From NCBI RefSeq assembly GCF_000022265.1, contig NC_011979.1:210001-242000 (forward strand): a DNA stretch of 32,000 nucleotides. The letters are read 5' to 3'. A model generated the notes under the pieces. It made no database searches. It was not told the origin of the DNA and worked only from the letters and a program-made list of their open reading frames with translations. Origin of the DNA: Geotalea daltonii FRC-32 (GTDB lineage: Bacteria > Desulfobacterota > Desulfuromonadia > Geobacterales > Geobacteraceae). Made by a program: the position numbers and the translations under genes. How positions within the stretch are numbered: the first letter of the stretch is position 1; the number at the start of each line of letters is the position of its first letter. Shown here piece after piece: positions 4,008 to 21,591 of the stretch.

Positions 4008-4064
4008 GAATAACTCCTTCTCATAAATTCAGCCCATTACAGTATTGATTGCTTCTTTCTCTGG

Positions 4065-5642: not shown

Positions 5643-5700
5643 TTCTCGTTCTCCCATTTACAGGTGACATGGAATATTATCATTATACAAACACTGTTTT

Positions 5701-5716
5701 GCACAATGTATTCCAG
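5701..5716 (-). promoter_or_regulatory. candidate sigma-54 (-24/-12) promoter for the CoA-transferase/DUF485/ActP/thiolase gene string
   Basis: The reverse complement reads TGGAAT-ACATT-GTGCA, with GG and GC spaced exactly as in the consensus TGGCAC-N5-TTGCA. It lies ~45-60 nt upstream of the CoA-transferase start. A sigma-54 activator gene lies directly upstream. Confidence 0.55.
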
Positions 5717-5903
5717 CAAGGGGTTTTCTTGGGATAATGGCTATAAATGGTGTGATATTGGTGGGTTAGAAGATAAAATAATATTTTGTAAGGCAGGGGG
5801 GGTGGTATATCTACGAAATTTCGGATGATGGTGCAGACGGCAGAGGTCTTATCCCTATGACAACGGGAGGTAACTGTGCGAAAGACGGAAGAAAATCAGG
5901 CGG

Positions 5904-5933: not shown

Positions 5934-7925
5934 TTACGATATTTCGGAGGATGACAGGCAGCGCTTGATACCCAGTTTTTTCATTCTCGATTCCAGGGTA
6001 GTCGGCTTGAGTCCCAGAAGTTCAGCGGCGCCGTTCTTGCCGCGGATGCGCCAGCCCGTTTTTTCCATGATGGAAAGGATGTGCAGCTGTTCCACCTCTT
6101 TAAGCAGTGCTGCCCTGGCTACAGTAGTCGGGGTACCGTCAGGAATATCAATCTCAAGGGTCGGGCCGTTGCTGAGGATCATGGCCCGTTCCACCATGTT
6201 GCGCAGTTCCCGGATATTACCCGGCCAGGTGTAATGCACCAGTGCATCCATGTTTTTTTTCGGCACCCGCTCGATGGTCTTGCCGAAAGCACCGGCAAAT
6301 TCCTTGACCATGGCCGAGACGAGCAAGGGAATATCCTCCTTGCGCTCCCGTAGCGGGGGGACCGAAATGGGGAAAACGTTCAGTCGATAGTAGAGATCCT
6401 CCCTGAATCGGCCTTCCTTGACTTCCCGGGCCAGGTCCCGGTTGGTGGCGGCAATGACGCGGGTATCGACGTCGATGGGCCTGGTGCTGCCAAGTCTTTC
6501 AAACTGCCCCTCCTGAAGAACTCTGAGAAGCTTTGACTGGAGATCAAGGGGCAGCTCTCCGATTTCATCCAGGAAAATGGTCGAGCCATTGGCGGCTTCA
6601 AAGCGTCCCACATGCCTTGCCGCGGCTCCCGTGTAAGCCCCTTTTTCATGGCCGAACAGTTCGGTTTCGATCAGGGTGGCCGGCAGGGCGGCGCAGTTCA
6701 CCTTGATCATGGAGCGTTCCCGGCGTCCGCTCAGGTTATGGATGGCGCGGGCCAGTAGTTCCTTTCCCGTACCGGTTTCCCCCAGGAGAAGAACGGTGGA
6801 GTCGGTATGGGCCACCTGTTGCAGTTGCCGCAGCACGCCGCGGATAGCCGTCGATTGGCCGATGATATCGTCCGGTTTGTACTCGATGTCGATCTGGTCG
6901 CGCAAATAGATATTTTCAGCTTCGAGCCGGTCCTTCAGGGTCTTGATTTCCGCCAGGGCGTGCTGAATCTTCTGATCCGCCCGTTTCCGCTCCAGGGCAT
7001 TGGCAAAAATCTCCCACAGGATGCGCAGGCGCTGAATGAGATCGTCGGGCCAGGCCCGGATGACGCTGTATGAGACAAAGGTGATGAATCCTTCGACCAC
7101 ACCGCCAACGCGGGAGGGAATGAACATGATCGAGCGGATGCCTCCCCGGTCACGGCAGTAGAGCTTCTCGCGCTGGAACGATTCGGGCAGTTCATCGCTA
7201 TCGGAAATCTTGAAGATTTCACCGGATTTGACCATGGAATTCCAGACGGGAACCATATCGGGCGGGAGAATGGGCAGGGGAGGCATGATGCCGGGGAGTT
7301 CATAGGAGTGGGTGCAGATCATTTCACCGGTGTCCGGATCGACCCGCCAGACAGTACTGCGGTCGAAACCGAGGAAGTCGACAATCTTCTGCAGTCCCTG
7401 GACGATCTTGCTGTCAACTTCACTGACCGGCACGTTGATAAAGGTTGTGGAAAGTGTCGAGAGAAGCGATTCGAATTGCAGCCGCTCAATCTGCGCTGCT
7501 TCTCTCAGTTTCTGCTCCGTAACGTCCAGTACGACAAGACTTACACCCAGCACTTCACCATCATCGGCGTTAAGGGGGTAGCAGCGGACCTGCCAGGTGT
7601 TGTTCATTGCCGTGTGGGCTGCGGCGGTGCTGTGTATGTCTACCGCCAGTTCGAAGAACGGCCTGTTGTCCCTCATGACGCGGAGCAGAATGGGCTCCAT
7701 GGCCAGGGCGATCTGCGGGTTTATATCTTCGATGCTTCTTCCGGCATGTTGCTCGACGGGCTTGCCATCAATCTTTGCCAGCTGCCCATTGACGTGTATG
7801 AAGTGCAGGTCCCTGTCAAGGACGGCAAAACCGAACTGCAAATCGGCAAACAAATCTTCAAGCTCCCTGAATTTTTCCAGAAAGAAATCAGATGAGCTCT
7901 TCATTCGTCGGCCTTTCATTTGCAT
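5934..7925 (-). CDS. sigma-54-dependent transcriptional activator (PAS + GAF sensor, AAA+ core, Fis-type HTH)
   Basis: Walker A GETGTGKE, the [13 protein letters not shown] (GAFTGA-type) sigma-54 contact loop, and the C-terminal [24 protein letters not shown]. The start is ambiguous (Met at 7925, 7919 or 7904). Confidence 0.9.
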
Positions 7926-9257: not shown

Positions 9258-10136
9258 ATGAGCAATCTCCAGTTTCATCAATTCCGCGGCACCGAGGGTT
9301 ATGTGGCCTCCAGGGCGCTGCAGGACGTGGTCAATGTGGCCATTGCCCTGGAGCGGCCGCTTCTGCTCAAGGGGGAGCCGGGTACCGGCAAGACGCTCCT
9401 CGCCCATCACATTGCCGAGGCTCTTGACATGGAAATCATTCTCTGGAATGTGAAATCCACCACCAAGGCCCGCGACGGCCTCTATACCTACGACACGGTC
9501 CAGCGCCTCAACGATGCCCGCTTTGGCGACGGCGATGTGAAAGATATCCGCCATTACATCAAATACGGACCGCTAGGGCGGGCCTTCGCCAGCGGCAAAC
9601 GGGTGGTGCTCCTCATCGACGAGGTGGACAAGGCGGACATCGAGTTTCCCAACGACCTCCTCTTCGAACTGGACGAGATGCGCTTCCATGTCCTGGAGAC
9701 CGATGAGTGGGTTAAAGCCGACCAGCGGCCGGTGGTCATCGTCACCTCCAATTCGGAAAAGGAGCTGCCGGATGCCTTCCTGCGCCGCTGCGTCTTTCAC
9801 TATATCGATTTTCCTGACGAGGCACAGATGCGGGCCATTATCGAGGTCCACTTCCCCGATCTTGGCGTGGAACTGATGGGCAAGGCCTGCAAAATCTTCT
9901 TTGGTCTGCGCGAGGTGCCTGGGCTGCGCAAACGGCCATCCACCTCCGAGCTTCTTGACTGGATCCGCGTTCTTTTGGCCAGCGGAGCAAAACTGCCCGA
10001 GGGGGATGTTCCATCCCTGGAATCGGTGCCGTTTCTCGGTGCCCTGGTCAAGATGCAGGAGGATACGGAGACCCTTTCCCGTCACGCCAACCGACCGGCC
10101 GATGTGCGCACCGCGGGCCGCCGCTTTTTCAGCTGA
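9258..10136 (+). CDS. MoxR-like AAA+ ATPase
   Basis: Walker A GEPGTGKT and Walker B VVLLIDEVDK. ATG 9258 is preceded by AAAGGAGA. It is paired with a downstream VWA gene. Confidence 0.85.
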   Translation: MSNLQFHQFRGTEGYVASRALQDVVNVAIALERPLLLKGEPGTGKTLLAHHIAEALDMEIILWNVKSTTKARDGLYTYDTVQRLNDARFGDGDVKDIRHYIKYGPLGRAFASGKRVVLLIDEVDKADIEFPNDLLFELDEMRFHVLETDEWVKADQRPVVIVTSNSEKELPDAFLRRCVFHYIDFPDEAQMRAIIEVHFPDLGVELMGKACKIFFGLREVPGLRKRPSTSELLDWIRVLLASGAKLPEGDVPSLESVPFLGALVKMQEDTETLSRHANRPADVRTAGRRFFS

Positions 10137-11308
10137 TGTTTCTGGCTCTATATCATTCACTGCGGGCGTTGAAGGTACCGGTCAGCCTTACCGAGTGGCT
10201 TACCCTGCTGGAAGGGCTGGCGAAGGGGCTGCATAATGACAGCCTTGAGGATTTCTACTATCTCTCCCGCAGCCTGCTCGTCAAGGACGTGGCCTATTAC
10301 GACGCCTTTGACCAGGCCTTTGCCTACTGCTTCAAGGATGGAGCCCTACCCGACGACTTGGCCACCAGGGAAAAGATCCTGGAATGGCTGCAGGACCCGC
10401 GAATGCCAAGGCCCTTCTCCCAGGAAGAGCTGGACCGGCTCAAGGCGCTTCCCCTGGACGAGCTGTTGCGGCAGCTGGAAGAACGGTTGCGTGATCAGAA
10501 GGAGGCGCACAACGGGGGGAAAAAATGGATCGGCAGCGGCGGTACGAGCCCTTATGGCATCAACGGCAGCCATCCATCGGGCATTTCCTTTTCTGCGGAG
10601 CGACAGGGGGGACGGGCGGCACTGCAGGCCTTTGCCCGCCGTTACCGGAACCTGCGCCATGACCTGACCCTGGATGTGCGCCAGATAGGTGTCGCCCTGA
10701 AAAGGCTGCGCGACCTGCGGGACTCTGGCGCGGAAGAGATCCTGGACATGGATGCCACCATCGAGAAGACTTGCAGGAATGCCGGAGAAATCGACCTGAT
10801 CTTCGGCCGGGAGCGGGAGAACCAGGTGCGACTGCTCCTGGTGATGGACTCGGGGGGCTCCATGGAACCGTACCGGGACCTTTCCGAGCGGCTCTTCTCG
10901 GCCGCCCACGGCCTCAACCATTTCAAGGATTTCCGCGCCTTCTACTTCCACAACTGTGTTTACGAAAATCTCTACACCAACCTGGACACCGATGAATTCG
11001 TGCCGACTGCCGAGGTGATGCGGGAGTACGGCAAGAACTACCGCCTGGTCATCGTCGGCGACGCCGCCATGTCCCCCTACGAGCTCATGACCCCCCACGG
11101 CACCCTGGAGCGCTACCGGACCAGCAACGTCACCGGTCACGAGTGGCTCCGCCAGTTCTCCGACGCCTTCCCCAAGCGCGCCTGGCTGAACCCCCTCCCC
11201 GAATCCTACTGGAACCAGTACGAAACCGTCCCCACCGTGGCCGGTCTCTTTCCCATGTTCCCCATGACCCTGGAAGGGCTGGGGAGAGCGGTCAGGCAGC
11301 TGCATTAA
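10136..11308 (+). CDS. VWA domain protein, CoxE-like partner of the MoxR ATPase
   Basis: The start ATG overlaps the MoxR stop (TGATG). The C-terminal half has a VWA-like beta strand plus a MIDAS-like segment LLLVMDSGGSM. This matches the typical MoxR-VWA gene pair. Confidence 0.7.
   Translation: MFLALYHSLRALKVPVSLTEWLTLLEGLAKGLHNDSLEDFYYLSRSLLVKDVAYYDAFDQAFAYCFKDGALPDDLATREKILEWLQDPRMPRPFSQEELDRLKALPLDELLRQLEERLRDQKEAHNGGKKWIGSGGTSPYGINGSHPSGISFSAERQGGRAALQAFARRYRNLRHDLTLDVRQIGVALKRLRDLRDSGAEEILDMDATIEKTCRNAGEIDLIFGRERENQVRLLLVMDSGGSMEPYRDLSERLFSAAHGLNHFKDFRAFYFHNCVYENLYTNLDTDEFVPTAEVMREYGKNYRLVIVGDAAMSPYELMTPHGTLERYRTSNVTGHEWLRQFSDAFPKRAWLNPLPESYWNQYETVPTVAGLFPMFPMTLEGLGRAVRQLH
11269..11308 (+). 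repeat. direct repeat copy 1 (3' end of the VWA gene); att-like
   Basis: CCTGGAAGGGCTGGGGAGAGCGGTCAGGCAGCTGCATTAA is 37/40 identical to 17296-17335. Confidence 0.9.
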
Positions 11309-11494
11309 ACTGGCGTCGCACTCCCTCCTTCCACCCAGGCCGGCTCTGTTTCTCTGTACGACCTCACACCCCTTTTTCGAGAAAGCGGATGAAAATTTTA
11401 ATGATCAGTGATATATTCGCCAGCGGCTTTTGCCGGATACCTGATGTTGAATGTCAATTTGGCAGTGGGGGAAAAGGGCTCTTCCAGCTTAAAA

Positions 11495-11599
11495 GTTTAT
11501 AGATGTATAAACCCGGCAAGGCTGGTGAAAAAGGCAAAGTTTATAATAGTAGAAACCGAAAGGTTTATAGATGTAGAAATAGTTTATACATCTATAAAC
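11495..11599. promoter_or_regulatory. array of four dyad-symmetric 18-mers (GTTTATA-N4-TAKAAAY); operator- or iteron-like
   Basis: The copies are GTTTATAGATGTATAAAC (11495), GTTTATAATAGTAGAAAC (11539), GTTTATAGATGTAGAAAT (11563) and GTTTATACATCTATAAAC (11582). Copies 1 and 4 are exact reverse complements. Confidence 0.6.
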
Positions 11600-11642
11600 T
11601 TTCTAACTGCTCAATCAGTAGTTGGGTGACAGAAAGAGACGC

Positions 11643-12248
11643 ATGAAAATCATTGAAAAACACATAACACGACGCGATATTATAACTTACTATGTCAAAT
11701 ATGATAGACAGAAGAAGGGACTGCCTGTAATCAAAAACCTCGAAACATGGCCGTGGAATGACGCAAATGCTATTGATAAACAACTTCAAAGTAATAATTT
11801 GAAAACAGGGGTTTTATCAGCGTATTGCGAATGGCAACTTGCCCAATTAGACTATGCTGATATCGCAGATTGCGCAATCGTTAATCACATTTTCCCAGGT
11901 CAACCACAGGCTCTTGGGCGAATTAACCAAAGTCATATCGCAAAATCTAAGCCTAATGGCAATCCAGAGTGGTGGGAACCACTTTCTTCAGGGTCCGATA
12001 TCCCACGGGAATGGGCACTGATTTTGCGGCCTACAGTTGCGAGCGAACTTCCAGCAAAGTGGTACATCGAAGATGGTAGTGGTCGCGCACTCGCGTTATT
12101 CCAACGCATGCTGGTGAATCAAGAACTTTGGCGCACAGCTTATGCATATCTTGGTATTATTCCAGATGAAGGCAGTCATTTCATACAAAAACGCCCTGAG
12201 CTTTTAAGGAATTGTGTCGAAAAAGGGGGACAGGCTGTTTTTTGGTAG
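11643..12248 (+). CDS. hypothetical cytoplasmic protein (orphan; no family recognised)
   Basis: 201-aa ORF from ATG 11643 (the track starts at TTG 11622). It is AT-richer than the flanks and has no TM helix or signal peptide. The only motif-like stretch is WYIEDGSGRALAL. Confidence 0.55.
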   Translation: MKIIEKHITRRDIITYYVKYDRQKKGLPVIKNLETWPWNDANAIDKQLQSNNLKTGVLSAYCEWQLAQLDYADIADCAIVNHIFPGQPQALGRINQSHIAKSKPNGNPEWWEPLSSGSDIPREWALILRPTVASELPAKWYIEDGSGRALALFQRMLVNQELWRTAYAYLGIIPDEGSHFIQKRPELLRNCVEKGGQAVFW

Positions 12249-12302
12249 CATGTTCAGAAAAGCGGCCTGCACCTTCTTCCCGCCTGCAATCCGATGCGGG
12301 GA

Positions 12303-12379
12303 GCCTTAAGGGGACGTAGTTGATTTGTTGATTAGCACTGCGGGATAGTCAACTAATCAACTACGTCCCCCCCCTAGCT
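12303..12379. repeat. palindromic repeat element, copy 1
   Basis: GCCTTAAGGGGACGTAGTTGATTTGTTGATTAG-cactgcgggatagtca-ACTAATCAACTACGTCCCCCCCCTAGCT. The arms GGGGACGTAGTTGATT..AG and CTAATCAACTACGTCCCC pair. Confidence 0.85.
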
Positions 12380-12477
12380 CCCGAACGGGTCAACTGCGCG
12401 AACCGTTGAACATCAAGTCAAAGCTCCGTCTTGGTGCCGGACGGTATTCCTTGGTGTCAACAACAGGAGGGCATGAA

Positions 12478-13830
12478 ATGAGTAAGAATATGATCAATGT
12501 GATGATGGGGTTATTTGTTGCATTGGTGTTTGGCATTTCTGGCTGTGGAGGGGCAACAAATTCGAATAATCCTGGCGCAACGCAGACGCAGCCAGTAGCA
12601 AATGCTGGAAGCAGTATGCGCGTTATCACTGGAGCAGTGGTGCAACTCGACGGCAGTGCAAGCAAAGCTACAATTGGGACTTTAACCTATATATGGCACA
12701 TCACCGCAAAACCAAGTGGAAGTAATGCGACACTTTCAGCCGAAAATATCGTAAATCCCACGTTTACACCAGATGTTGCTGGAACATACACGATTGGTTT
12801 GGTAGTAACTGATTCTGTTGCTGCAAGCACTGAATCAAGCATTACGGTTACTGCAACGCTTCCGATTGCCCCAGTTGCAAATGCAGGTACGTCTCAAAGT
12901 GTTACCATGGGAACAGTTGTAACTCTCGATGGCTCAGCTAGTACGGTAGGTGCAGGTAAAACTGCTTCCTACAGCTGGGCAATTGCCACAAAACCGTCAG
13001 GGGGTGTCGCATCAATTTCAAATCCAACGACTGTCAAACCGACATTCATACCAGATGTAGTAGGCACATATATATTCACACTGACTGTTTCTGATGGTTA
13101 TTTTACCGATACAGGAACCGTGACCGTCTCTGTCGCACATAACCCAGGGGACATTGTAAGAACAATTCCTTTCCCGGCAGGGATAAGTGGAGTGAGCGAC
13201 GTTGTTTTTGATAGTTCATCACAAACCTTATTGGTCTTTGCTTATGATGTCTTGGATAATTGGAAGGTCACAAAAATTATACAGATTGATTACTCCTCTG
13301 GAGCGACTTTGAACACGACAGCAATTGTTAATCCAGATTTTTTTATGAATCAGTCAAGCGAGTTTACTAAAGCTGGTGATTATTATTATGGGACAAGTTA
13401 TGGAAATAGTAATGGTGTTCCTCAATCATTTATTTACAAAATTGATATGAATGGCAATGTGATAGCTTCATTTCCTTGCCCAGCTACAAACGCAGGTGGT
13501 TTCTGCGAAGGTCTCGCATGGGATGGTCAATATTTATGGTCGGGTGCATCAGACAATAAGAACCTTACTCAATTCTCAACAAATGGATCTGTACATGCAA
13601 CAATAACCGCTTGGAATTACATAGGTACGACAGATGTAAGCTACGATAAGACCATGAATCAGTTGATAGTTTCCTTGAACAATAGGCTACATCGTGTTGA
13701 TCCAGTTACCGGCACTGAGAATAGTAGTGTTTATACTGGGTTTTCAAGAGTGGGCGACTGGGATGGCAATCTGTTTTGGGCTGTCAATTCGAGTACCAAG
13801 CAATTGGAAGGAATTTATATAGGAAATTAA
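12478..13830 (+). CDS. lipoprotein with two tandem PKD-like Ig repeats and a C-terminal beta-propeller-like domain
   Basis: ATG 12478 follows AGGAGG. Signal peptide plus lipobox FGISGC. Two ~88-aa repeats (PVANAG...LDGSAS...KPSG...NPTFTPDVAGTY...VTD; nt 12592-12855 and 12871-13134). Confidence 0.7.
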   Translation: MSKNMINVMMGLFVALVFGISGCGGATNSNNPGATQTQPVANAGSSMRVITGAVVQLDGSASKATIGTLTYIWHITAKPSGSNATLSAENIVNPTFTPDVAGTYTIGLVVTDSVAASTESSITVTATLPIAPVANAGTSQSVTMGTVVTLDGSASTVGAGKTASYSWAIATKPSGGVASISNPTTVKPTFIPDVVGTYIFTLTVSDGYFTDTGTVTVSVAHNPGDIVRTIPFPAGISGVSDVVFDSSSQTLLVFAYDVLDNWKVTKIIQIDYSSGATLNTTAIVNPDFFMNQSSEFTKAGDYYYGTSYGNSNGVPQSFIYKIDMNGNVIASFPCPATNAGGFCEGLAWDGQYLWSGASDNKNLTQFSTNGSVHATITAWNYIGTTDVSYDKTMNQLIVSLNNRLHRVDPVTGTENSSVYTGFSRVGDWDGNLFWAVNSSTKQLEGIYIGN

Positions 13831-13860
13831 TTTAAAATATCAGTAAAGAAGAAGATAAAG

Positions 13861-13955
13861 GGGCCTTAAGGGGACGGGGCCTTAAGGGGACGTAGTTGAT
13901 TTGTTGATTAGCACCTGCGGGTTAGTCAACTAATCAACACGTCCCCCCCCTAGCT
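13861..13955. repeat. palindromic repeat element, copy 2 (with a 16-nt tandem duplication at its left edge)
   Basis: Same element as 12303-12379 with a few point/indel differences. GGGCCTTAAGGGGACG occurs twice in tandem (13861-13876, 13877-13892). Confidence 0.85.
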
Positions 13956-13997
13956 TTCCAATCAGTAGTTGAAAACAATAAGTATTCAGGGGAAATA

Positions 13998-14603
13998 ATG
14001 AAGAGAATTCGGGTGTTTTTATCAGTCTGCTTTTGTTTAATAAGTGGAAGTATTGTTGTTGAAGCCGCAGCTCAAGAAAAACAGCCGGTAGCTATAATTA
14101 TAGCTGCACTCAATGCACGTGTTGAAGCTCAGTGTTCAATCGCACGCATGCGCCAGTCGTTAGCAAGCACGGCATATGAGAAAGCTCAGGTAAATGCTGC
14201 AGTGAAAATGAATTGTGAATGCCTGCCACCAGAGATTGAGCGCGCAGGAAATGATCTCAGCGGTGGAAATCCGGATGCCACTATTACCGAAAAAGTCTAC
14301 GAGACAAGATTAAAGGCCGCAATTAACTTGTGCGTAGCAAAGGGAGTCAGAGAAGATATTCAGACGCGTTGCGAAAATGAAGACATAACTGCACTTGGCA
14401 TCACAGATAAAAAAGCGTATTGCGGATGTGTAGTACGCCAAGTTAAAGGATTATCCGATGAAGCTATCGCTTCAGCTAGCACAGTGACCAAGATGCATTT
14501 TGAAGAAAAAGTTCGAGCGAGAATGGAGGGAAAGCCTGATCCCGTGTCACCGCTCACTGCTATTGATGAAGTCACAAACTTCTGTAAGCAAGAAGAAAAA
14601 TAG
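13998..14603 (+). CDS. secreted hypothetical protein (signal peptide, several Cys)
   Basis: 201-aa ORF with the N-terminal signal-like segment MKRIRVFLSVCFCLISGSIVVEAAAQ. AT-richer composition; no family recognised. Confidence 0.6.
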   Translation: MKRIRVFLSVCFCLISGSIVVEAAAQEKQPVAIIIAALNARVEAQCSIARMRQSLASTAYEKAQVNAAVKMNCECLPPEIERAGNDLSGGNPDATITEKVYETRLKAAINLCVAKGVREDIQTRCENEDITALGITDKKAYCGCVVRQVKGLSDEAIASASTVTKMHFEEKVRARMEGKPDPVSPLTAIDEVTNFCKQEEK

Positions 14604-14646
14604 AAACAGCTTGACTCTTTAGGGGGTATAAGATTCGCTATTTCAT

Positions 14647-14730
14647 TTTTAACTCGTCGCTGAACTCGGACAGGCAACGAAGGCTGCCGCTTCGCGGCGG
14701 CGTTGCCTGCCTGTTAGCTCGGCGTTGGGC
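14647..14730 (+). other. attC-like (integron 59-base-element-like) imperfect hairpin
   Basis: TTTTAAC-TCGTC-GCTGAAC...GTTAGC-TCGGC-GTTGGGC. The terminal AAC/GTT boxes fit RYYYAAC / GTTRRRY. There are 5-nt unpaired spacers, an L-box pair with one extrahelical G, an inner 8-bp plus 8-bp stem, and all bulged bases lie on the 5' arm. Confidence 0.5.
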
Positions 14731-14849
14731 ATTTAAAAATGGGGGCATGAAATGAATCTGTCAGAATTCCGATTACGCTGTCATCTCCACACAGGGCCAC
14801 CAATGGCAAGCTTTACGGTGCTGGACATACGGCAATAGTCTTTTCCAAT

Positions 14850-15368
14850 ATGGACACCAACGATCAAAGCGAATGGGAGCCGGCGGTTAATGCCTTACTT
14901 TCTGATGGATATCAGATCCTGACATATGATTATCCTGAGCATATCGATGACCAATCGAGAACCCTTGAAGATGCTATTTCATTCATTGCTGCAACTGGTG
15001 CAAGAAAAATAATCCTCGTTGGTGCGAGTAGAGGTGGCGTCGCATCTATAAAGGTAGCCGCTCGTAACACTAATAGCGACGCCATAGTTGGAGTTGTTGC
15101 TCTTTCGGCTCCTATCGAATATGAAGGAACTATTTTTTATAACAATCACGAATTGAGCGACATTAAAATTCCAAAGCTATTGATAAATTCCGAAAATGAT
15201 GATGGGGTAAATGATACTCGTAAGATGTTCGAGTTATTTGAAGGTTCAAAAGAACTGTTAATCTGTCCGGGGAACGCCCATGGGACTGAACTCTTTCATC
15301 AAGAAGAATCAATAATTAAAAAACTACGGAACTTTGCAAAGTCAGTTTTTGCAGCATATGGCTCTTGA
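14850..15368 (+). CDS. alpha/beta hydrolase (dienelactone-hydrolase-like), probably 5'-truncated or frameshifted
   Basis: Nucleophile elbow GASRGG, an acidic-residue context NSENDD and a His context GNAHGTE. The frame stays open and hydrolase-like back to 14751 but has no start codon there. Confidence 0.6.
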
Positions 15369-15409
15369 GGTGTATGACACATATTCTTCCTCAAAAAGGA
15401 GCAAACCCC

Positions 15410-15952
15410 ATGAAAAAAGCTTTACTGGTCATTGACGTACAGAACGAATACTTTTCCGGCAAGCTTCCGGTGACTCACCCGGCGGGGAGCCTTGAAAAAA
15501 TCGGTAAGGCCATGGACGCCGCGGCGGCAAAGGGTTTGCCGGTCATTGTCGTGCAGCATACGGCAGTGCCCGATTATCCTTTCTTTCGCAAAGGGAGCCA
15601 GGAATGGATGCTGCACCCGGAGGTGGCGAACCGCCCTAACACTCTTCTGATCGAGAAGAATCTGCCGGGAAGCTTTACGGGCACGAACCTGGAAGCGTGG
15701 CTCAGGGAGAGGAATATCGATACGGTGGTAATCAGCGGCTACATGACCCAGATGTGCTGCGACACCACCGCGCGGCAGGCGTTTCATCGGGGCTTCGGCG
15801 TGGAGTTTCTCGCCGACGCCACCGGCACCCTCTCCCTGGCTAACAATGCCGGGTCGGTGACCGCTGAGGAGTTGCACCGGGCCATCCTGGTGACGCAGGG
15901 GATGCTCTTCAGCAAGGTATTGACGACTGCCGAGTGGATAAGCAGTCTTTAG
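15410..15952 (+). CDS. isochorismatase-family cysteine hydrolase
   Basis: ATG 15410 follows AAGGAG. N-terminal [12 protein letters not shown] (catalytic Asp context) and the Cys context [15 protein letters not shown]. Confidence 0.85.
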
Positions 15953-16053
15953 GGAAAAAATGGGGTCACCCATCAGGATCTAGGCTATTGTCGAAGTGGT
16001 GGAGGTTCAACAGCCCGTTCCGCCTTTCGCGGACCAGAAAACCACATGACGTC

Positions 16054-16082
16054 TTGACGCTATAACATCATGGTGCTACATT
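16054..16082 (+). promoter_or_regulatory. sigma-70-type promoter of the RHH/RelE module
   Basis: TTGACG (16054-16059), a 17-nt spacer, then TACATT (16077-16082), ~20 nt upstream of the antitoxin ATG. Confidence 0.45.
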
Positions 16083-16103
16083 GTGCGACAGGAGGTGCGA
16101 ATC

Positions 16104-16337
16104 ATGAGTACTCTCACCAAACGGGCAACAGTATATTTTGATCCTGCCATACACCGGGCATTGCAACACAAGGCTTTGGTAGCCTCGCGATCTCTTTCTG
16201 ACATCGTCAACGATGCAGTACAACAAGCACTGGCAGAGGATGCCGAGGATCTGGCCGCGTTTGAAGAGCGGGTCCACGAGCCGCTGGTTTCTTATGAAGC
16301 GGTGCTGAAAGAGCTGAAGGCAAATGGCCGGCTATAG
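16104..16337 (+). CDS. ribbon-helix-helix antitoxin (CopG/RelB/ParD-like)
   Basis: 77 aa from ATG 16104 (preceded by AGGAGG). N-terminal KRATVYFDPAIHRALQHKA beta-strand/helix pattern. Overlaps the downstream toxin ORF by 14 nt. Confidence 0.8.
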   Translation: MSTLTKRATVYFDPAIHRALQHKALVASRSLSDIVNDAVQQALAEDAEDLAAFEERVHEPLVSYEAVLKELKANGRL

Positions 16338-16584
16338 CATTTTCTTCAAGGATTCAGTCAGGAAAGATTTTGAGTCCATTCCGAAGAATGACCTGCAGCG
16401 GACTATGGAACGGATTGCCGCCCTCGCTGAGAATCCACGGCCGATGGGGTGTGAAAAACTTTCGGGGCAGGAGAAATACCGGGTCCGCCAAGGCAACTAC
16501 CGGATCGTTTATTCGATTCAGGATAGCCAGCTGACGGTCTGGGTGGTCAGGGTCGGCCACCGCCGAGAAGTCTACCGTCCCTGA
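16324..16584 (+). CDS. RelE/ParE family type II toxin
   Basis: 86 aa with KYRVRQGNYRIVYSIQDSQLTVWVVRVGHRREVY, typical of the RelE/ParE superfamily. Confidence 0.85.
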   Translation: MAGYSIFFKDSVRKDFESIPKNDLQRTMERIAALAENPRPMGCEKLSGQEKYRVRQGNYRIVYSIQDSQLTVWVVRVGHRREVYRP

Positions 16585-16723
16585 TTTGTATTCCCAACGG
16601 TACATGTGGGTCTTAAATCAGATAATTACCCGCCTGTTAAAAAATCCGCCATTTGATGGTACCCTTTTAAGTAAACCTCTAAAGAAATGGGGCCTAGGCT
16701 TGCAATTGTGCAGTTAGAAATGT

Positions 16724-16774
16724 AGTCGCAAAAAGCAAATCAGACAGGCTGCTTTTGCCGGAAAGCAGCCTGTC
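16724..16774 (-). terminator. rho-independent terminator downstream of the HAF-repeat fragment
   Basis: Perfect 13-bp stem GACAGGCTGCTTT / AAAGCAGCCTGTC (16743-16774) with a 6-nt loop, followed on the minus strand by TGATTTGCTTTTTGCG. Confidence 0.65.
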
Positions 16775-16789
16775 CCTCTTGCCCTGCGC

Positions 16790-17295
16790 TTATTTGATTT
16801 TCCAGAGAACGGCATGCGTCTCTGCCGATCCCGGGCTGGTCTGGCTATAACCCACCGCCTGCTTATGATTGTTGATGGCCTTGGCAAAGCTGTTCCCACC
16901 CAGCGAACCCAGATCGGTCATCACGCCTTTCTGCCATATGAAGGCCTTTGTCGGGCCTAAAGTCGCAGAACTGAAACCCACCACCTGTCCCTTATCATTG
17001 ATATCGAATACTCTGGTTTGACCTCCGAAAAGCGTACCCAGGTCAGTCATGACACCATCCTGCCAGAAGAAACCGTGAAAAAGTGCCGAGGAATCTAGAT
17101 CCGAGCCCGCCACCTGCCCCCTGTTATTGATAAAGATATCCACGGCGGTCCTTTCATCTTTATCAATCGGGCCCAAATCGGTCATCTTGCCCTGGACGAG
17201 GTGTTGCTGCACTTCTCCAAGAAGCAGAAGTCGGCAAGGCAGAAGTATGAGGTATTCATAGCTGATGGTGTCGAACGCGGGTCCCCTTAGAACTA
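16790..17295 (-). pseudogene. HAF-family extracellular repeat protein, 5'-truncated fragment (C-terminal ~3.5 repeats)
   Basis: Repeats of the form xAF(I/F)Wxx G(V/K)MTDLG(T/S)LGG ... INNxGQV(V/A)G(F/Y)S, ending ETHAVLWKIK*. There is no signal peptide or credible start. The tracked Met lies inside the antisense of the 40-nt att-like repeat. Confidence 0.65.
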
Positions 17296-17335
17296 CCTGG
17301 AAGGGCTGGGGAGAGCGGTCCGGCAGCTGCACTGA
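17296..17335 (+). repeat. direct repeat copy 2 (orphan copy of the VWA gene 3' end); att-like
   Basis: CCTGGAAGGGCTGGGGAGAGCGGTCCGGCAGCTGCACTGA. It still encodes LEGLGRAVRQLH* and has 3 synonymous differences from 11269-11308. Confidence 0.9.
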
Positions 17336-17455
17336 CCTTAATCCATCTCCCTTACGAGGTCTTTACCTGGACCGAAACTTTTAATAACGTTGTTGCTTAT
17401 TTAAAGTTTCTATCGTAACATTAAATAACTAATCCGGTTATTAAAGGTTTTGACT

Positions 17456-18652
17456 ATGCGCAAGAGCGATTTAAGTCCGGAGCGGCGAGGGTTACTTGTT
17501 CCTGTCAGGGAGTATTCCGGCAGCTTTGCCCTGGTTCCCCCTCCCACCCCTCGTGCCCGTGATCTGGTCGGGTTACCGGGATTGGAGGATAAACTGGTCA
17601 GGGCTCGCGAGGCTCTTGACAGCTTGCAACGGTTATCGGCGGTGCTGCCGAATCCGGATCTGGTCACCAGGACTGCCGATCGCCGGGAGGCGGTCAGAAG
17701 CAGTCAGATTGAGGGAACCCAGTCGGGGATCAATGACCTCCTTGCATTCGAGGCGACCGGTAGCGACGAGGGCTTACCACCAGATGTTCAAGTGACAAAA
17801 AACTATGTGTATGCACTTGAGCATGGCCTGGAGCAGGTACGGGAGAGCGGGGTTTCGGCGTTCAGTTGCGGGCTCATCAAGCAGATTCATGCCCGGCTCA
17901 TGGAGAAGGTTGCGTCCTTTCAAGGAATTCCCGGAGAATTCAGGGACAGGCAAAACTGGATTGGTGGAGGGTTGAGGATCGATCAGGCAAAGTTTGTTCC
18001 CCCCCCTGCCGAATACATAGACCCCTGTATGGAGGACCTTCTCCAGGTGCTGCATTACACGCCGGAGGAAGAAGATTTTTTTGAATTTTCCATCATAATG
18101 AGGATGGCCGTTGTTCATGCCCAGTTTGAAACTATCCATCCCTTCATCGACGGCAATGGAAGGGTCGGGAGGATACTCCTCCCACTGATGCTGGCCGCCG
18201 AGGGCCTGCCCCCTGTGTACCTTGCAGGTTACCTGAAGGAGAACCAGCGCGAGTACTATGAAGCACTGGCAGGGGTGCAACTGCGCGGAAGATGGGCAGA
18301 GTGGATTCGTTTTTTTTCAGCAGGTGTGGAGGCCGCTGTTCAAGAGGCGATAGATACCTCTGTCGGATTGGATGCAATCGTAAAGAAATGGGAAGCCATA
18401 GTGGCAGATATGGGACTTCGGCGTCAGTCGGTGTTGCATAGATTTCCGAGGCTCATGGCAGGCACCCCTGTACTGACCGCAAACCAGGTCAAAGACGCTC
18501 TCAATATTTCATTCCCGTCGGCAAGTGCTGCTCTGGCGAAATTGGAAGAAGTCGACATCTTGGTTCAACGGCAACCTCATCGGCGCAACAGGTGCTTCTA
18601 TGCGAAGGAAGTCATCGAGCTTCTTGACCGGGCGCCCAAGGTGCGGCGATAG
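17456..18652 (+). CDS. fic: Fic family protein (class II, autoinhibited AMPylase type, with a C-terminal wHTH-like region)
   Basis: Fic motif HPFIDGNGRVGR. The N-terminal inhibitory motif SxxxEG is present as SSQIEG. ATG 17456 (the track starts at TTG 17450). Confidence 0.9.
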   Translation: MRKSDLSPERRGLLVPVREYSGSFALVPPPTPRARDLVGLPGLEDKLVRAREALDSLQRLSAVLPNPDLVTRTADRREAVRSSQIEGTQSGINDLLAFEATGSDEGLPPDVQVTKNYVYALEHGLEQVRESGVSAFSCGLIKQIHARLMEKVASFQGIPGEFRDRQNWIGGGLRIDQAKFVPPPAEYIDPCMEDLLQVLHYTPEEEDFFEFSIIMRMAVVHAQFETIHPFIDGNGRVGRILLPLMLAAEGLPPVYLAGYLKENQREYYEALAGVQLRGRWAEWIRFFSAGVEAAVQEAIDTSVGLDAIVKKWEAIVADMGLRRQSVLHRFPRLMAGTPVLTANQVKDALNISFPSASAALAKLEEVDILVQRQPHRRNRCFYAKEVIELLDRAPKVRR

Positions 18653-18743
18653 ATTAATGGCGGGCTGGGCCTGCACAGAAGTAGCACTGACCGTTGCGTT
18701 CAGACATCGTCTGCCATAACTTTTGAAGACAAAGAGGACACAC

Positions 18744-19919
18744 ATGCAACACTACATGATCGGCATCCTGATATTGACCATCTGCATGGGCGGCTGTGCC
18801 CGCACGCTTCCGCCCAGTGAGGAACTTACTCAGGCGGTGACCAAGAGCTTCGCTGCCACGGGATTCAACTACACCTCGAAGAGCAGGATTACCGACCTGA
18901 ATGTGCCCCGGAAAGACCTGCCCAAAATGCCGGGCAAGAAGACCAATCTGGCCCTGGACAAGGGGCTTGAGGTGCTCGACAGTCTTTCCGTCACTTTGGA
19001 CGGCGCCGTGGACACGACGGCAAAAAGGTCCCAGGTGCTCTATGCCCTGCGGTACGAAAGGGACAATCTGGAAATTTCCGTCAAGCTGCCCATTTTGATG
19101 GATTACGGGACGCAGACGGTCTACCTGGGCACCTCCATCTACACGACGGTCCTGGAGTCACTCTACCCGCAAGCTCCGCCAACCAGGGGCAAGCTGATCC
19201 GGATCGACCTCAACAAACTCTTGCAGGAGGGAACCGCCAAGAAGCCCGAGTTGGCAAAGGTGGTCGGCAGCAATCTCCTCAATGGCAAAAACATCGACCT
19301 GATCAACAATGCCATAAAGGCTGCGGTCCTTAAGGAACTCCCCAAACTGAAGGAGGACTGCTTCAGGGATCAGCCGCTCTCCGACAAGGACAGGCAAGCG
19401 GGGGTGATCCGCCGCATTCGGGTGGATCTCGGCCGTAGCGAGTCCGTTTCACTGGCCCTGGGGGCAATGGAGAGTGTCGTCGAGGCCCTCTATCAGCAGC
19501 AAATTATTCCCGAGCAGGTGTACACGGTCCTGCTTACTCTGACCGATCCCAAATTTGCGGAAGAGGCAAAGGAGAAACTTTCAATAAATGCGACCTTCCA
19601 TGTGGGTATTGCCCCTTCCGGGCAGGTGGCGTATGTGGAGGGACAGTATGACATGGCTGACCGGCAGGAACAGTTCCGCGTGGGAGTAGAAACGGTCAGC
19701 ACCTTCTCCAATTATGGCGCTCCCCGCTTCACCTTGTTGCCGGAACAAAGCGGGGTTGTGGATTTCACCGAGCTCCTCAAGGTGATTGCTGTTTCGGCCC
19801 AGGAAAAAAAGGCCGACGTTGATGCCTCAAATGCGGAAGAGATTGACGAAACGAGTAAGGACGGCACGCTCGATACAAAAGGTGATGTGTGGCTTCAAAG
19901 AGCCGATGTTGCCCTCTGA
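18744..19919 (+). CDS. hypothetical lipoprotein
   Basis: ATG 18744 follows AAGAGGA. Signal peptide plus lipobox-like ICMGGC. No family recognised. Confidence 0.6.
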   Translation: MQHYMIGILILTICMGGCARTLPPSEELTQAVTKSFAATGFNYTSKSRITDLNVPRKDLPKMPGKKTNLALDKGLEVLDSLSVTLDGAVDTTAKRSQVLYALRYERDNLEISVKLPILMDYGTQTVYLGTSIYTTVLESLYPQAPPTRGKLIRIDLNKLLQEGTAKKPELAKVVGSNLLNGKNIDLINNAIKAAVLKELPKLKEDCFRDQPLSDKDRQAGVIRRIRVDLGRSESVSLALGAMESVVEALYQQQIIPEQVYTVLLTLTDPKFAEEAKEKLSINATFHVGIAPSGQVAYVEGQYDMADRQEQFRVGVETVSTFSNYGAPRFTLLPEQSGVVDFTELLKVIAVSAQEKKADVDASNAEEIDETSKDGTLDTKGDVWLQRADVAL

Positions 19920-19957
19920 CCAGGCGAATCTGGCACAGCGATCCAGGACAAGGACAG

Positions 19958-19975
19958 GGGGACGTAGTTGATTAG
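19958..19975. repeat. solitary half (one arm) of the palindromic repeat element
   Basis: GGGGACGTAGTTGATTAG is identical to the arm consensus of the elements at 12310 and 13886. Similarity ends abruptly after it. Confidence 0.7.
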
Positions 19976-20002
19976 TGGAGTAGCGATGCTTGATAACAAA
20001 CA

Positions 20003-20092
20003 ACTGCTGTCCCCCACCACCTGTCCCTTATAGTTGATGTCGATCCCAAAGCTGTGATCATGGGAGGTTTGGGGATGCCCCGTTGTCGTCCC
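20003..20092 (-). pseudogene. HAF-family repeat fragment (about one repeat)
   Basis: The minus-strand translation ...GTTTGHPQTSHDHSFGIDINYKGQVVGDSS matches the xSxAxGINxxGQVVGxS part of the HAF repeat. It is wedged between the hipA stop and the half-palindrome. Confidence 0.5.
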
Positions 20093-20110
20093 TCTGCTTC
20101 GCAGCAACAC

Positions 20111-21358
20111 TCATAAAAGCTTCCGTAAGGTATTCTCCGTCTGCCCCCCGATAAATTCCATCAAACGGTACAATGCATCGCACCTGTAGGGAGCGAAGCT
20201 GCCATTGAAGAGCTGCAGCCGGATCTCCTCGATCCTTTTCGCCAGTTCAACAACGCGGCTGAGCACCAATCGGGGCTTGATTCCGGCCTCTTCGGCAAAC
20301 AGCTCCCAGTGTTTTTTCCGGAGAGAGTCCGGATCGCTAATGCCGCCGATTTTCATCGCCAAACCGGATGCCAGTCCGTAATGGGCAAAGATCCTGGTCG
20401 AAACCAGATCGTAGAATGGCGCCAGCACTGGGCCTTTCGGCAGCAACAACAGGGAGATGTTTTTGCCATGGGCATCGGAGTTGCCGATAAGGTAGTTGAA
20501 GATCAGCCAGTTCAGCAGGGAGAGCACATCTTTCCCCGACCTGATGCTCGCATGGCGCAGGAGATCGATGCATGAGACCAGAGTCGGGCCACCTTCCGTT
20601 TCATACTTGAACTCGGGGGGGATTGCGAGCGCTTGGCAGAAGTCTTCCTGATGCAGTCTTCTGGTACCCCCTGCAACGGCAAGGCGGTCATAGCGTTTGA
20701 CTACGAATACGCAAGTCTCGCCATGCCGATGAATGAATGACTCGGGCACATCGAGGCCGACCGCCCGGGCCAGGGCCATGCAGAATGCCTCGTTTTCAAC
20801 TGTGCCGTCCAGTCCTTCAATGGGAGGTTTGATAATATAGTTGCTGGGAGCGTCGCCAAGCCCAAGATGAAAGTGCTGCTCGTCATAGTAGACGGGAAGC
20901 TTCTTCTGGGCGCCGGCCAGAGACAGGCGAACACCTTTCTCACCGGCCAACAGAGGCCGTCTGGGAAGTTCTTCGATAATGGCATCCAGTTCATCCAGAG
21001 AAAGTTGTCGGTAAGCTGCAGGTTCCGGTTGAAATTCGTCGGTTGCAGGATAGAGCGAGACTGCGCCGGCACAGTCGCCACCGATTTTTTCCAGAAGGCC
21101 GTAATCGTTGTTCGGGGAAACGCTGAGGTTTCGGGAGATAACCGCCCGCATTCTTTCTTCGGGAAGGAGGTTGGCAAAAAAGGGGTGTGACTCATCGTCG
21201 AGATATGGTTCCCGGCGTAGTGGCAGGGAAAGGGATAACGGCATGTGTGATGTGGCGAGCCACCGCTTATCGTACTGAAAACAGAATCGTTTCCTGTCGT
21301 CCAGCCACAAGCTGCCGACAACAACTCCATCGACCCTTACCTGAAGAGCATTGCTCAT
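20111..21358 (-). CDS. hipA: HipA-family serine/threonine kinase toxin
   Basis: 415 aa with a HipA N-terminal coupling region (VGSLWLDDRKRFCFQYDKRW) and a kinase C-terminal domain (IGNSDAHGKNISLLL). 4-nt overlap with the upstream XRE gene. Confidence 0.9.
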   Translation of the reverse strand: MSNALQVRVDGVVVGSLWLDDRKRFCFQYDKRWLATSHMPLSLSLPLRREPYLDDESHPFFANLLPEERMRAVISRNLSVSPNNDYGLLEKIGGDCAGAVSLYPATDEFQPEPAAYRQLSLDELDAIIEELPRRPLLAGEKGVRLSLAGAQKKLPVYYDEQHFHLGLGDAPSNYIIKPPIEGLDGTVENEAFCMALARAVGLDVPESFIHRHGETCVFVVKRYDRLAVAGGTRRLHQEDFCQALAIPPEFKYETEGGPTLVSCIDLLRHASIRSGKDVLSLLNWLIFNYLIGNSDAHGKNISLLLLPKGPVLAPFYDLVSTRIFAHYGLASGLAMKIGGISDPDSLRKKHWELFAEEAGIKPRLVLSRVVELAKRIEEIRLQLFNGSFAPYRCDALYRLMEFIGGQTENTLRKLL

Positions 21359-21591
21359 GTTTCCTTCCCCGGTCCGCTCCAGGTGCGGAGATTGGCCTCA
21401 AGTTCGATGCTGAGGCAGCTAAGCACCTGCAGCACCTTGTTCAGACGCACGGTTTCCTTGCCGTTCTCCAGTGCCGAGAGAAAGGCGTAGCTCACCCCAC
21501 AGACCGCTGCCGCCTCCTCCAGGGTTAGTCCGTCAGTTTTACGTTTCTGCTTGATGATGCCGCCCAGGTTTTTCACAGTTAAGATTTTCAC
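21355..21591 (-). CDS. hipB: HipB-like XRE-family HTH antitoxin
   Basis: 78 aa with an HTH (LTLEEAAAVCGVSYAFLSALENGK). GTG start preceded by GAGGG. Confidence 0.85.
   Translation of the reverse strand: MKILTVKNLGGIIKQKRKTDGLTLEEAAAVCGVSYAFLSALENGKETVRLNKVLQVLSCLSIELEANLRTWSGPGKET

Follow-up and report, generated by a model that had tools for sequence, protein, structure and literature searches.

A probable remnant of a chromosomal integron platform, lacking an integrase, downstream of a VWA/CoxE-like gene in Geotalea daltonii FRC-32

The chromosome of Geotalea daltonii FRC-32 contains an AT-rich block of small genes that starts directly 3' of the stop codon of a VWA/CoxE-like gene, which raises the question of whether this block is, or once was, an integron cassette array. 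The window analysed here is a stretch of 32,000 nucleotides (contig NC_011979.1, positions 210,001 to 242,000 of the forward strand), and all coordinates are positions within it unless a comparison locus (L number) is named. An initial annotation, made from the letters alone, had read the block as an integrase-less array resembling a CALIN (cluster of attC sites lacking an integron integrase), with attC-type junctions before each co-oriented open reading frame (ORF) and no attI. The present analysis indicates that the region downstream of the VWA gene is probably an eroded, integrase-less remnant of a chromosomal integron platform. The parts that survive are likely an attI-type platform, a first cassette (ORF1), and one intact cassette consisting of ORF3 and its attC. 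The locus is integron-derived, and degraded chromosomal integrons are an already known kind of element.

The 84-nt hairpin at 14647-14730 (plus strand) is very probably a genuine attC site. Every box, spacer, stem and bulge that had been listed for it was found. The terminal boxes are R'' TTTTAAC (14647-14653) and R' GTTGGGC (14724-14730), the spacers, of 5 nt each, are TCGTC between R'' and L'' and TCGGC between L' and R', and the L boxes are L'' GCT(G)AAC and L' GTTAGC, with G14662 unpaired. The stems CAGGCAAC/GTTGCCTG and GCTGCCGC/GCGGCGGC are both present. Also unpaired on the 5' arm are GAAG 14679-14682 and A14670, the latter on the same arm as G14662; the proposal that all bulges lie on one arm held for these bases and failed for a further one, on the 3' arm, which faces TC 14666-14667 and is unpaired in the canonical fold. 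The first base of R'' is T and not a purine, as it is in the blaIMP-11 and orfF sites, and R'' pairs with R' mostly by G-T pairs. A proposed resemblance to the centre of the aadA element proved exact: the central 14-mer GCCGCTTCGCGGCG is the centre of the aadA1 attC, as read from real class 1 integrons. The site starts 43 nt 3' of the ORF3 stop codon, on the same strand and in the correct orientation. No intrinsic terminator was found at 14647-14730, as the stem is followed by GTTGGGCATTTAAAAATG with no T-run and the terminator scan listed none. In the unconstrained minimum-energy fold the spacers pair in an alternative way, and the 84-mer folds only modestly better than shuffled sequences (z -2.5 and -2.05), so the case for an attC had to be made by other means.

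An Rfam search of the window matched no attC or integron-related family, returning only a spurious microRNA match on a hairpin repeat, and a covariance model was therefore built. An integron integrase fragment in L014, used as a query, led to class 1 integrons from plasmids and to an environmental integron of Thiodictyon, and 17 genuine attC sites (15 class-1 and 2 Thiodictyon) were used to train the model, R1, with the window sequence left out. R1 is a stand-in for the IntegronFinder model attc_4, and its E-values are rough. In the training alignment 91% of the cells in the 14 R- and L-box pairs were paired, rising to 97.5% in the L box, and AAC and GTT were invariant among the 17 sites. With filters off, the whole window gave one significant match, full length, confined to the plus strand and coextensive with 14647-14730 (28.7 bits; E 1.6e-4 for the window, 3e-5 for the island alone), in which the model places G14662 in the extrahelical column of real attC L'' boxes. 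By comparison, the training sites score 42-70 bits, and three Thiodictyon attC sites outside the training set score 38.4, 28.3 and 23.0 bits. A search of about 220 kb of Geobacteraceae loci with default filters gave a single match (26.8 bits), in L014, the one locus there with an integron integrase (TIGR02249, 358 bits); a further 91 kb or so, searched with filters off, held nothing above 12 bits at full length.

The site was likewise the only strict structural hit in the window, and its boxes resemble those of the blaIMP-11 and aadA2 attC sites. The blaIMP-11 attC has the same architecture (TTCTAAC AAGTC GCTGAAGC ... GCTTAGC TCGGC GTTGGGC), a near-equal 3' end (TTAGCTCGGCGTTGGGCATT) and an extrahelical G in the top-strand L'' box, while the aadA2 attC shares the R' box GTTGGGC. 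In the aadA1 attC, with which the centre is held in common, the second extrahelical base lies 7 nt further in, compared with 8 nt (an A) here. The class 1 sites (blaIMP-11, aadA2) differ from that of the window, which has another stem, a length of 84 nt and the R'' box TTTTAAC. A BLAST search against plasmids found no significant primary-sequence match to any known attC, so the site is a member of the class and not a copy of a known one. By analogy with other attC sites it should act as a folded single strand: one strand would fold into an imperfect hairpin, the extrahelical bases 14662 and 14670 on the R''/L'' arm would set strand choice, and IntI would cut between G14724 and T14725.

Further attC sites were sought at the other proposed junctions. 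R1, significant at 14647-14730, was silent at 11613-11627, 12405 and 13968, even at E = 10 within the island, so that an attC is supported at one place only and the junctions at 12405 and 13968 are at most putative. Since R1 under-scores attC sites of this clade, its silence is weak evidence; low-scoring sites that are clear by eye and by structural scan occur in L057, L059, L032, L012 and L011. A stronger argument against further attC sites is the complete lack, by sequence and by structural scan, of an AAC box in the spacers that follow ORF1 and ORF2. The home-made scanner for AAC...GTT hairpins gave 0.7 hits per kb in its loose form and, in its strict form, 28 sites in 305 kb that include real attC; being too unspecific for statistics, it was used only to show that the island spacers hold no further candidate. 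For a clade-specific model, the variable stems defeat alignment by MAFFT and the strand of several candidate training sites is uncertain. A minus-strand candidate at 16590-16648 (TTTTAAC...GTTGGGA) folds no better than shuffles (z +0.6), has no model match, and was rejected.

Heptamers of the type GTTRRRY had been put forward as marks of a junction before each ORF. Those at 11621 (GTTGGGT), 12405 (GTTGAAC) and 14724 (GTTGGGC) are present, and GTTGAAA at 13968, also present, misfits the consensus. GTTRRRY occurs 23 times in the window against 49 expected (sd 6; dinucleotide-preserving shuffles) and is thus under-represented, so that heptamer counts carry no weight. The 12-mer AATCAGTAGTTG, reported to occur twice, does so exactly, against 0.07 expected.

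The conclusion that no attI is present was overturned. The segment 11491-11627 (plus strand), overlooked by the initial annotation, is very likely an attI-type site. It opens with four iterons of the type GTTTATAGATGTAKAAAC (11491-11600; units at 11495-11512, 11539-11556, 11563-11580 and 11582-11599; 0 expected by chance), each unit 18 nt long and the first of them only 182 nt from the VWA stop codon. These are presumed, by analogy, to be accessory integrase-binding repeats. The simple site follows at 11601-11627, with TTCTAAC (11601-11607), a 13-nt spacer and GTTGGGT (11621-11627), and the crossover would lie between G11621 and T11622.

The iteron module, defined by the pattern GTTTATAG-N3-TAGAAAC repeats followed by TTCTAAC-N13-GTT, is not confined to the window. 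A two-iteron pattern recovered the iteron block from 8 contigs in a metagenome scan, to which L020 was added from an earlier genome scan. A common layout is shared by the window and seven other loci: several iterons, CCGGYTCTAACCGGTGATTTACGA|GTTRRRY (or a diverged form at equal spacing), and a small co-oriented ORF. An alignment of these sequences (A3), from which L063 (which stops at the junction) and L064 (which has no GTT junction) were excluded, is collinear up to the invariant GTT and unrelated beyond it. L063 comes from a strain 97% identical to the window, and its contig ends exactly at 11622. In L061 the iteron block is preceded by a divergent integron integrase gene and followed by the first ORF, which is the canonical intI-attI-cassette arrangement. 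The encoded integrase (TIGR02249, 259.5 bits, profile positions 2-254, cut by the contig end) has 36-38% identity to IntI1 and to the Thiodictyon IntI and contains the IntI-specific insertion. The TTCTAAC...GTTRGRC pair in L061 and L059 was picked up by the attC model as R-box-only matches. Through L061, then, the module has a divergent intI on one side, conservation up to G|TT and variable sequence after it, the window itself being without intI; in L020 the module is present and no intI was found in the 3 kb upstream that were covered.

The attI1 site of class 1 integrons comprises a simple site and the direct repeats DR1 and DR2, which are bound by IntI1. The site described here likewise has direct repeats upstream of two inverted core boxes, a crossover position at G|TT and, in L061, a location between a divergent intI and the first cassette. 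It differs from attI1 in sequence, in its more numerous repeats (3-6), which are 18 nt long and partly palindromic, in a box spacing of 13 nt, and in the lack of intI in the window and in L020; here integrase binding of the iterons is presumed.

Two further observations concern the module. Between intI and the iterons, L061 (773-1138, minus strand) and L058 (138-494) have a conserved ORF of 118-121 aa with no family match, whose 3' end overlaps the first iteron and of which degenerate traces occur in L020 and L057; the window has no significant trace of the 121-aa form (E 1.8). An inverted 16-nt copy of the left half of the attI core, TTTCTAACTGCACAAT, lies at 16705-16720 on the minus strand (15/16 identical; 0.02 expected), so that the inverted core copy (TTTCTAACTGCTCAAT) sits 5.1 kb downstream of attI.

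ORF1 (11643-12248, plus strand; 201 aa from the ATG; no known domain; 46 homologs) would be the first cassette, joined to attI at the canonical G11621|T11622. Similarity of the ORF1 module to L056 (95% identity) and L054 (83%) begins at 11621/11622, that is, exactly at G|TT, and on this alignment GTTGGGT at 11621 is taken to be a true cassette junction. The 58 nt before the junction in L056 are a weak attC-like full-length model match ending in GTTGGGC. The 95% identity to L056 ends near 12225-12236, and from about 12237 onwards other sequence seems to have taken the place of the 3' end of ORF1 and of its own attC. The contigs with ORF1 homologs (L054, L055 and L056) are not model-positive arrays, and only L056 has weak attC-like sites flanking the gene. 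A broken attC was considered after ORF1 (12249-12411), where GGGTCAAC-N10-GTTGAAC is similar to attC-like sites of L056 and L048 in their 3' halves; this candidate has no upstream AAC box and consists in part of hairpin-element flank (the homology to L030 reaches 12388).

At the positions after ORF1 and ORF2 where an array would have attC sites, the window has hairpins of another kind, which the initial annotation had also missed. Copy 1 (12300-12388; arms 12310-12334 and 12346-12370; z -7.4; no attC-model match) and copy 2 (13860-13962; z -5.9) are about 90% alike, and the hairpin arms are 92% complementary. In copy 2 a 16-nt stretch of the left flank is duplicated in tandem (13860-13892), and the right flank runs into AATCAGTAGTTG. 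A degenerate third copy (19957-20003), outside the block, adjoins a HAF-repeat gene fragment (20013-20043) and brings the number of copies in the window to 3. The 21-nt arm was found in 33 loci of species-representative genomes, nearly all from Geobacteraceae/Desulfuromonadales and a few from other lineages. The repeat has two forms, the short hairpin seen in the window and a form in which the arms stand about 1.05 kb apart around a gene. In L014 (4171..5222) and L011 (1146..2196) the units are inverted around a Y1_Tnp gene, the product of which has an insertion sequence (IS) 200-like Y1 transposase domain (PF01797, 42.5 bits, above the cut-off) and a helix-turn-helix (HTH) resembling Bac_DnaA_C, whereas in L030 two short hairpins flank an ordinary flavoprotein gene.

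On these comparisons the hairpins are identified as derivatives, of the REPIN (repetitive extragenic palindrome doublet forming a hairpin) or MITE (miniature inverted-repeat transposable element) kind, of an element with a Y1 transposase like that of RAYTs (REP-associated tyrosine transposases), and not as attC sites. REP/REPIN elements and their RAYT transposases (NCBIfam NF047646) are a known system with which they can be compared. In both, two inverted 25-nt units form an intergenic hairpin of about 60-90 nt, and the units are inverted around a Y1 (IS200-like) gene. The present transposase differs in its extra DnaA_C-like HTH and in scoring below the RAYT equivalog cut-off (64.4 bits; cut-off 80), and the 21-mer, common to many species and to other families, looks like a horizontally moving IS or MITE and not like a vertical REPIN population. 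Short tandem duplications of the left flank (units of GGGGCCTTAAGGGGAC or CTAAGGGGAC type) stand by many copies of the hairpin, also in L008, L013 and L024, and look like stuttering at the element end.

A relic of about 90 nt of the RAYT-like transposase gene (17192-17281, plus strand; residues ~158-190; 59-62% identity over 26-27 aa, E 5e-9 to 3e-8) adjoins the second of two copies of the VWA gene end, described below. Beside it is a 5'-truncated HAF-repeat protein gene (16790-17200, minus strand; TIGR02913, 96.6 bits). This gene and a second HAF-repeat fragment at 20013-20110 (minus strand) have in common a 31-nt stretch that is 90% identical. One fragment abuts the RAYT relic, the other the degenerate hairpin, and insertions may have broken up what was once a single gene.

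The RAYT-like element family is widespread in Geobacteraceae, and its hairpins occur together with attC, attI or intI in L011, L012, L014, L020, L025/26, L032 and the window. The distance between hairpin and attC or attI is a few hundred bases to a few kb in L011, L012, L020, L025/26 and L032. In a Desulfobulbaceae metagenome-assembled genome (L014, 4021-7779), the integron integrase breaks off near residue 88, precisely where a hairpin arm (7020-7040) lies, and the interval between the truncated intI and attC (4021-4110, 2873-2932) is occupied by a RAYT-like element and by a HipA-like gene next to a small ORF. It is conceivable, if improbable, that RAYT-like elements preferentially colonise cassette arrays, landing at or replacing folding attC sites; the data show co-occurrence only, and the window hairpins sit exactly at the attC positions of an attI-headed array.

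The genes of the block run on the plus strand in the order ORF1, ORF2, ORF3, ORF4, isochorismatase-family gene, RelB/ParD-like antitoxin and ParE toxin, after which the truncated HAF-repeat gene stands on the minus strand. The description of co-oriented AT-rich ORFs with a toxin-antitoxin module downstream was borne out, with G+C values of 0.39-0.50 compared with about 0.57 for the window. ORF2 (12478-13830) encodes a lipoprotein-like product in which a domain search found two PKD/Ig-like domains. ORF3 (13998-14603), the gene of the intact cassette, encodes an orphan secreted protein of no family, without homologs beyond itself among 5.8 billion proteins. ORF4 (14749-15368) encodes an alpha/beta hydrolase; its frame is open from 14749 but offers no start codon before 14850, and the ATG at 14752 belongs to another frame. 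ORF4 is probably a cassette gene frameshifted at its 5' end, near 14750, and no attC follows it by model or by structural scan of the window. The start regions of ORF2 (12462-12481) and ORF4 (14736-14755) have in common GGGCATGAAATGA, a mini-ORF ATG AAA TGA that overlaps a second ATG, which at ORF4 is out of the hydrolase frame. The isochorismatase-family hydrolase gene (15374-15952; G+C 0.59) does not look like a cassette gene. The type II toxin-antitoxin pair identified by domain search consists of the RelB/ParD-like antitoxin (16104-16337) and the ParE toxin (16324-16584). A promoter scan found sites no more numerous than expected by chance.

The absence of an integrase, as originally described, was upheld. 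No ORF in the window matched Phage_integrase or IntI, and tblastn with four IntI proteins found nothing, relics included. A shadow ORF on the minus strand (10346-11305) was tried as intI and rejected, as it has no domain and the plus-strand ORF there is the VWA/CoxE-like gene (10136-11308; PF05762), which has a MoxR-type ATPase gene upstream.

The block is bordered by a 43-nt direct repeat, likewise new to this analysis. Copy 1 (11269-11311, plus strand), at the left border, is the last 40 nt of the VWA gene plus 3 nt, and copy 2 (17296-17338, plus strand), at the right border, is an orphan copy of the gene's 3' end. The copies are 91% identical and bracket 6,027 bp; over 36 nt copy 2 is 97% identical to copy 1, closer than the VWA gene of any relative. 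This duplication suggests, from sequence comparison, that the 6 kb came in, or underwent rearrangement, as one unit; the DNA between the two copies contains no recombinase gene.

In L048, the nearest relative with a long contig, the VWA protein is 92% identical and synteny extends to the VWA stop codon and resumes from thioesterase and major facilitator superfamily genes, with about 8 kb of wholly different genes between. The variable region of the window is therefore 11309 to about 21800 and does not stop at 17295. L048 has full-length R1 matches directly after ORF stops at 15453-15517 (17.8 bits) and 17934-18009 (18.2 bits), and a third structurally good attC-like site at 14799-14863. More distant relatives have no island there, and core genes directly follow VWA. 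As the contents differ among relatives, the locus is a lineage-specific cassette hot spot.

Other features of these islands were recorded in passing. Group II introns lie just behind attC-like stem-loops in L048 (12283-14215) and L020 (about 4365-5790), with the 5' end GTGCGCCC, a partly degraded reverse transcriptase gene and the orientation of the cassette ORFs; associations of group II introns with attC are known in Geobacter (PMC3001079). On either side of the L048 island stands a copy of the terminator hairpin found after VWA, the two forming an exact 25-nt direct repeat (11245-11269 and 19161-19185; CCCACTGCAGAA..ATGCAGTGGGT). In the window, the stretch 17450-21591 holds a Fic/DOC gene, a 398-aa gene without known domain, and a small ORF followed by a HipA toxin gene. 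In the identical contig L046 this small ORF is called as an HTH (HTH_3) gene, likely an antitoxin. Fic/DOC, HipA and ParDE make three toxin-type modules in 10 kb.

Several explanations other than platform decay were weighed. It is very unlikely that 14647-14730 is an ordinary stem-loop or terminator, attC-like by chance, in a generic flexible island without integron ancestry. The modest folding z of -2.5, the solitary occurrence of the site, the lack of a significant primary-sequence match to known attC and the frequency of AAC...GTT hairpins in control DNA under the loose scan (about 0.7 per kb) would all allow this. Set against them are a score of 28.7 bits where 91 kb of other sequence reached at most 12 bits at full length, a single match in some 220 kb that itself lies in an integron, the missing T-run, attC-like matches at the same locus in L048, and an attI-type module, homologous to one beside intI, 3 kb upstream in the same orientation. 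About as unlikely is the idea that the hairpins at 12300-12388 and 13860-13962 are the array's own recombination sites, whether non-canonical attC or a Y1-dependent analogue. Their positions after ORF1 and ORF2 are exactly those expected for attC, their likeness of about 90% recalls the attC sites of sedentary integrons, and several hairpin loci (L011, L012, L014, L020, L025/26, L032) also carry attC, attI or intI. Their box polarity, however, is the reverse of attC (GTT on the 5' arm, AAC on the 3' arm), their stems are near-perfect without unpaired spacers, and the attC model does not match them. Elsewhere the arms enclose a Y1 transposase gene (L014, L011), as REP/RAYT or IS-like elements do, or flank an ordinary flavoprotein gene (L030), and one copy lies outside the block at 19957; an attC identity was rejected.

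Two further possibilities have more in their favour. The array might be a working cassette store, with an intI elsewhere in the 4.3-Mb genome acting in trans on attI and attC, for example by excising 11622-14724 as a composite cassette or by new insertions at G11621|T11622. The attI simple site and iterons look intact and are collinear with those by intI in L061, the attC retains all boxes and extrahelical bases, the contig of the 97%-identical strain (L063) breaks exactly at G|TT, which is compatible with a first cassette that varies in the population, and the corresponding locus of L048 differs in content. Integron integrases have been described in Geobacter, some genomes having two or more intI (PMC2426708). 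This reading is nevertheless unlikely: no intI is known for the organism (the search covered the 32-kb window), contig breaks at iterons and hairpins also arise simply from repeats, and the ORF4 frameshift, the two lost attC positions and the gene fragments have the look of decay and not of turnover. Arrival of the 6,027-bp block (11312-17295) in one piece, with the integron parts merely cargo, is doubtful on balance but has to be taken seriously. Site-specific or single-crossover (Campbell-type) integration of a circle carrying the VWA 3' end would leave a direct repeat that brackets the block exactly, with a second copy closer to the resident gene end than are the relatives' genes. There is an upward step in composition at the left border and a second rise within the block from about 15400, and the L048 island is similarly bracketed by its terminator repeat. 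On the other side, the block has no integrase or recombinase gene and the variable region goes past the right repeat, to about 21800; such an arrival would explain how the block came, not the attI and attC nature of its parts, and is compatible with platform decay.

Decay of a chromosomal integron platform remains the best explanation. It would have involved loss of the attC sites expected after ORF1 and ORF2, in whose places REPIN/MITE-like hairpins now stand, and a cognate IntI from elsewhere in the genome could still recombine attI × attC. We infer IntI binding by the iterons, competence of the sites for recombination with a cognate IntI, and the order of decay from the comparisons given above. 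Several points tell against this explanation. A single attC is detectable, so that the term array depends on attI and one attC. R1 is biased towards class-1 sites, the clade's own attC scoring 8-16 bits or nothing. Neither intI nor a relic of it is present in the window, and the function of both sites is predicted. The module of L020 also has no intI within 3 kb, which leaves L061 as the locus that links module and integrase. Homologs of ORF1 are found in ordinary surroundings outside arrays as well (L054, L055). The isochorismatase gene, being GC-rich, is unlike a cassette gene, and the 43-nt repeat on either side of 11312-17295 speaks for a separate integration event, which platform decay leaves unexplained.

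The locus falls between the formal classes of integron elements. A CALIN, as called by IntegronFinder 2, has at least two clustered attC sites with no integrase nearby (PMC9024848). One attC was found here, by model and by structural scan, a count to be read with the insensitivity of the proxy model to attC sites of its own clade. The locus resembles a CALIN in lacking intI, in its small, co-oriented, AT-rich orphan ORFs with a nearby toxin-antitoxin pair, in its signs of decay, and in the several attC-like sites at the equivalent locus of the nearest relative. It differs in that only one attC is detectable, in that an attI-type site, not required in a CALIN as defined, is retained, and in that two expected attC positions are taken by unrelated hairpin repeats. 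The proposed array of attC junctions has accordingly been reduced to one attC. A SALIN consists of a single attC and a coding sequence, with neither an integrase nor another att site nearby, and SALINs have been proposed to arise by insertion at genomic attG sites (bioRxiv 10.1101/2022.09.11.507474). The window has a single attC after one coding sequence and no integrase nearby, as in a SALIN, yet the co-oriented attI-type module 3 kb upstream speaks for a decayed platform. With no adjacent intI, the locus is not a complete integron either.

These results do not change what is known of integron function. The comparison of nine loci defines an attI type for one clade of Geobacteraceae integrons, with 3-6 iterons of 18 nt followed by TTCTAAC-N13-GTTRRRY, which could go into annotation tools that mostly recognise the attI of classes 1-3 only. 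Because a class-1-trained attC model under-scores the attC sites of this clade, counts of CALINs and SALINs in such lineages may be underestimates. Colonisation of arrays by RAYT-like elements, if true, would freeze arrays or give cassettes a means of integrase-independent movement. The locus itself is a documented example of probable chromosomal integron decay in which the integrase has been lost, attI and one attC survive, and other attC positions would have been overwritten.

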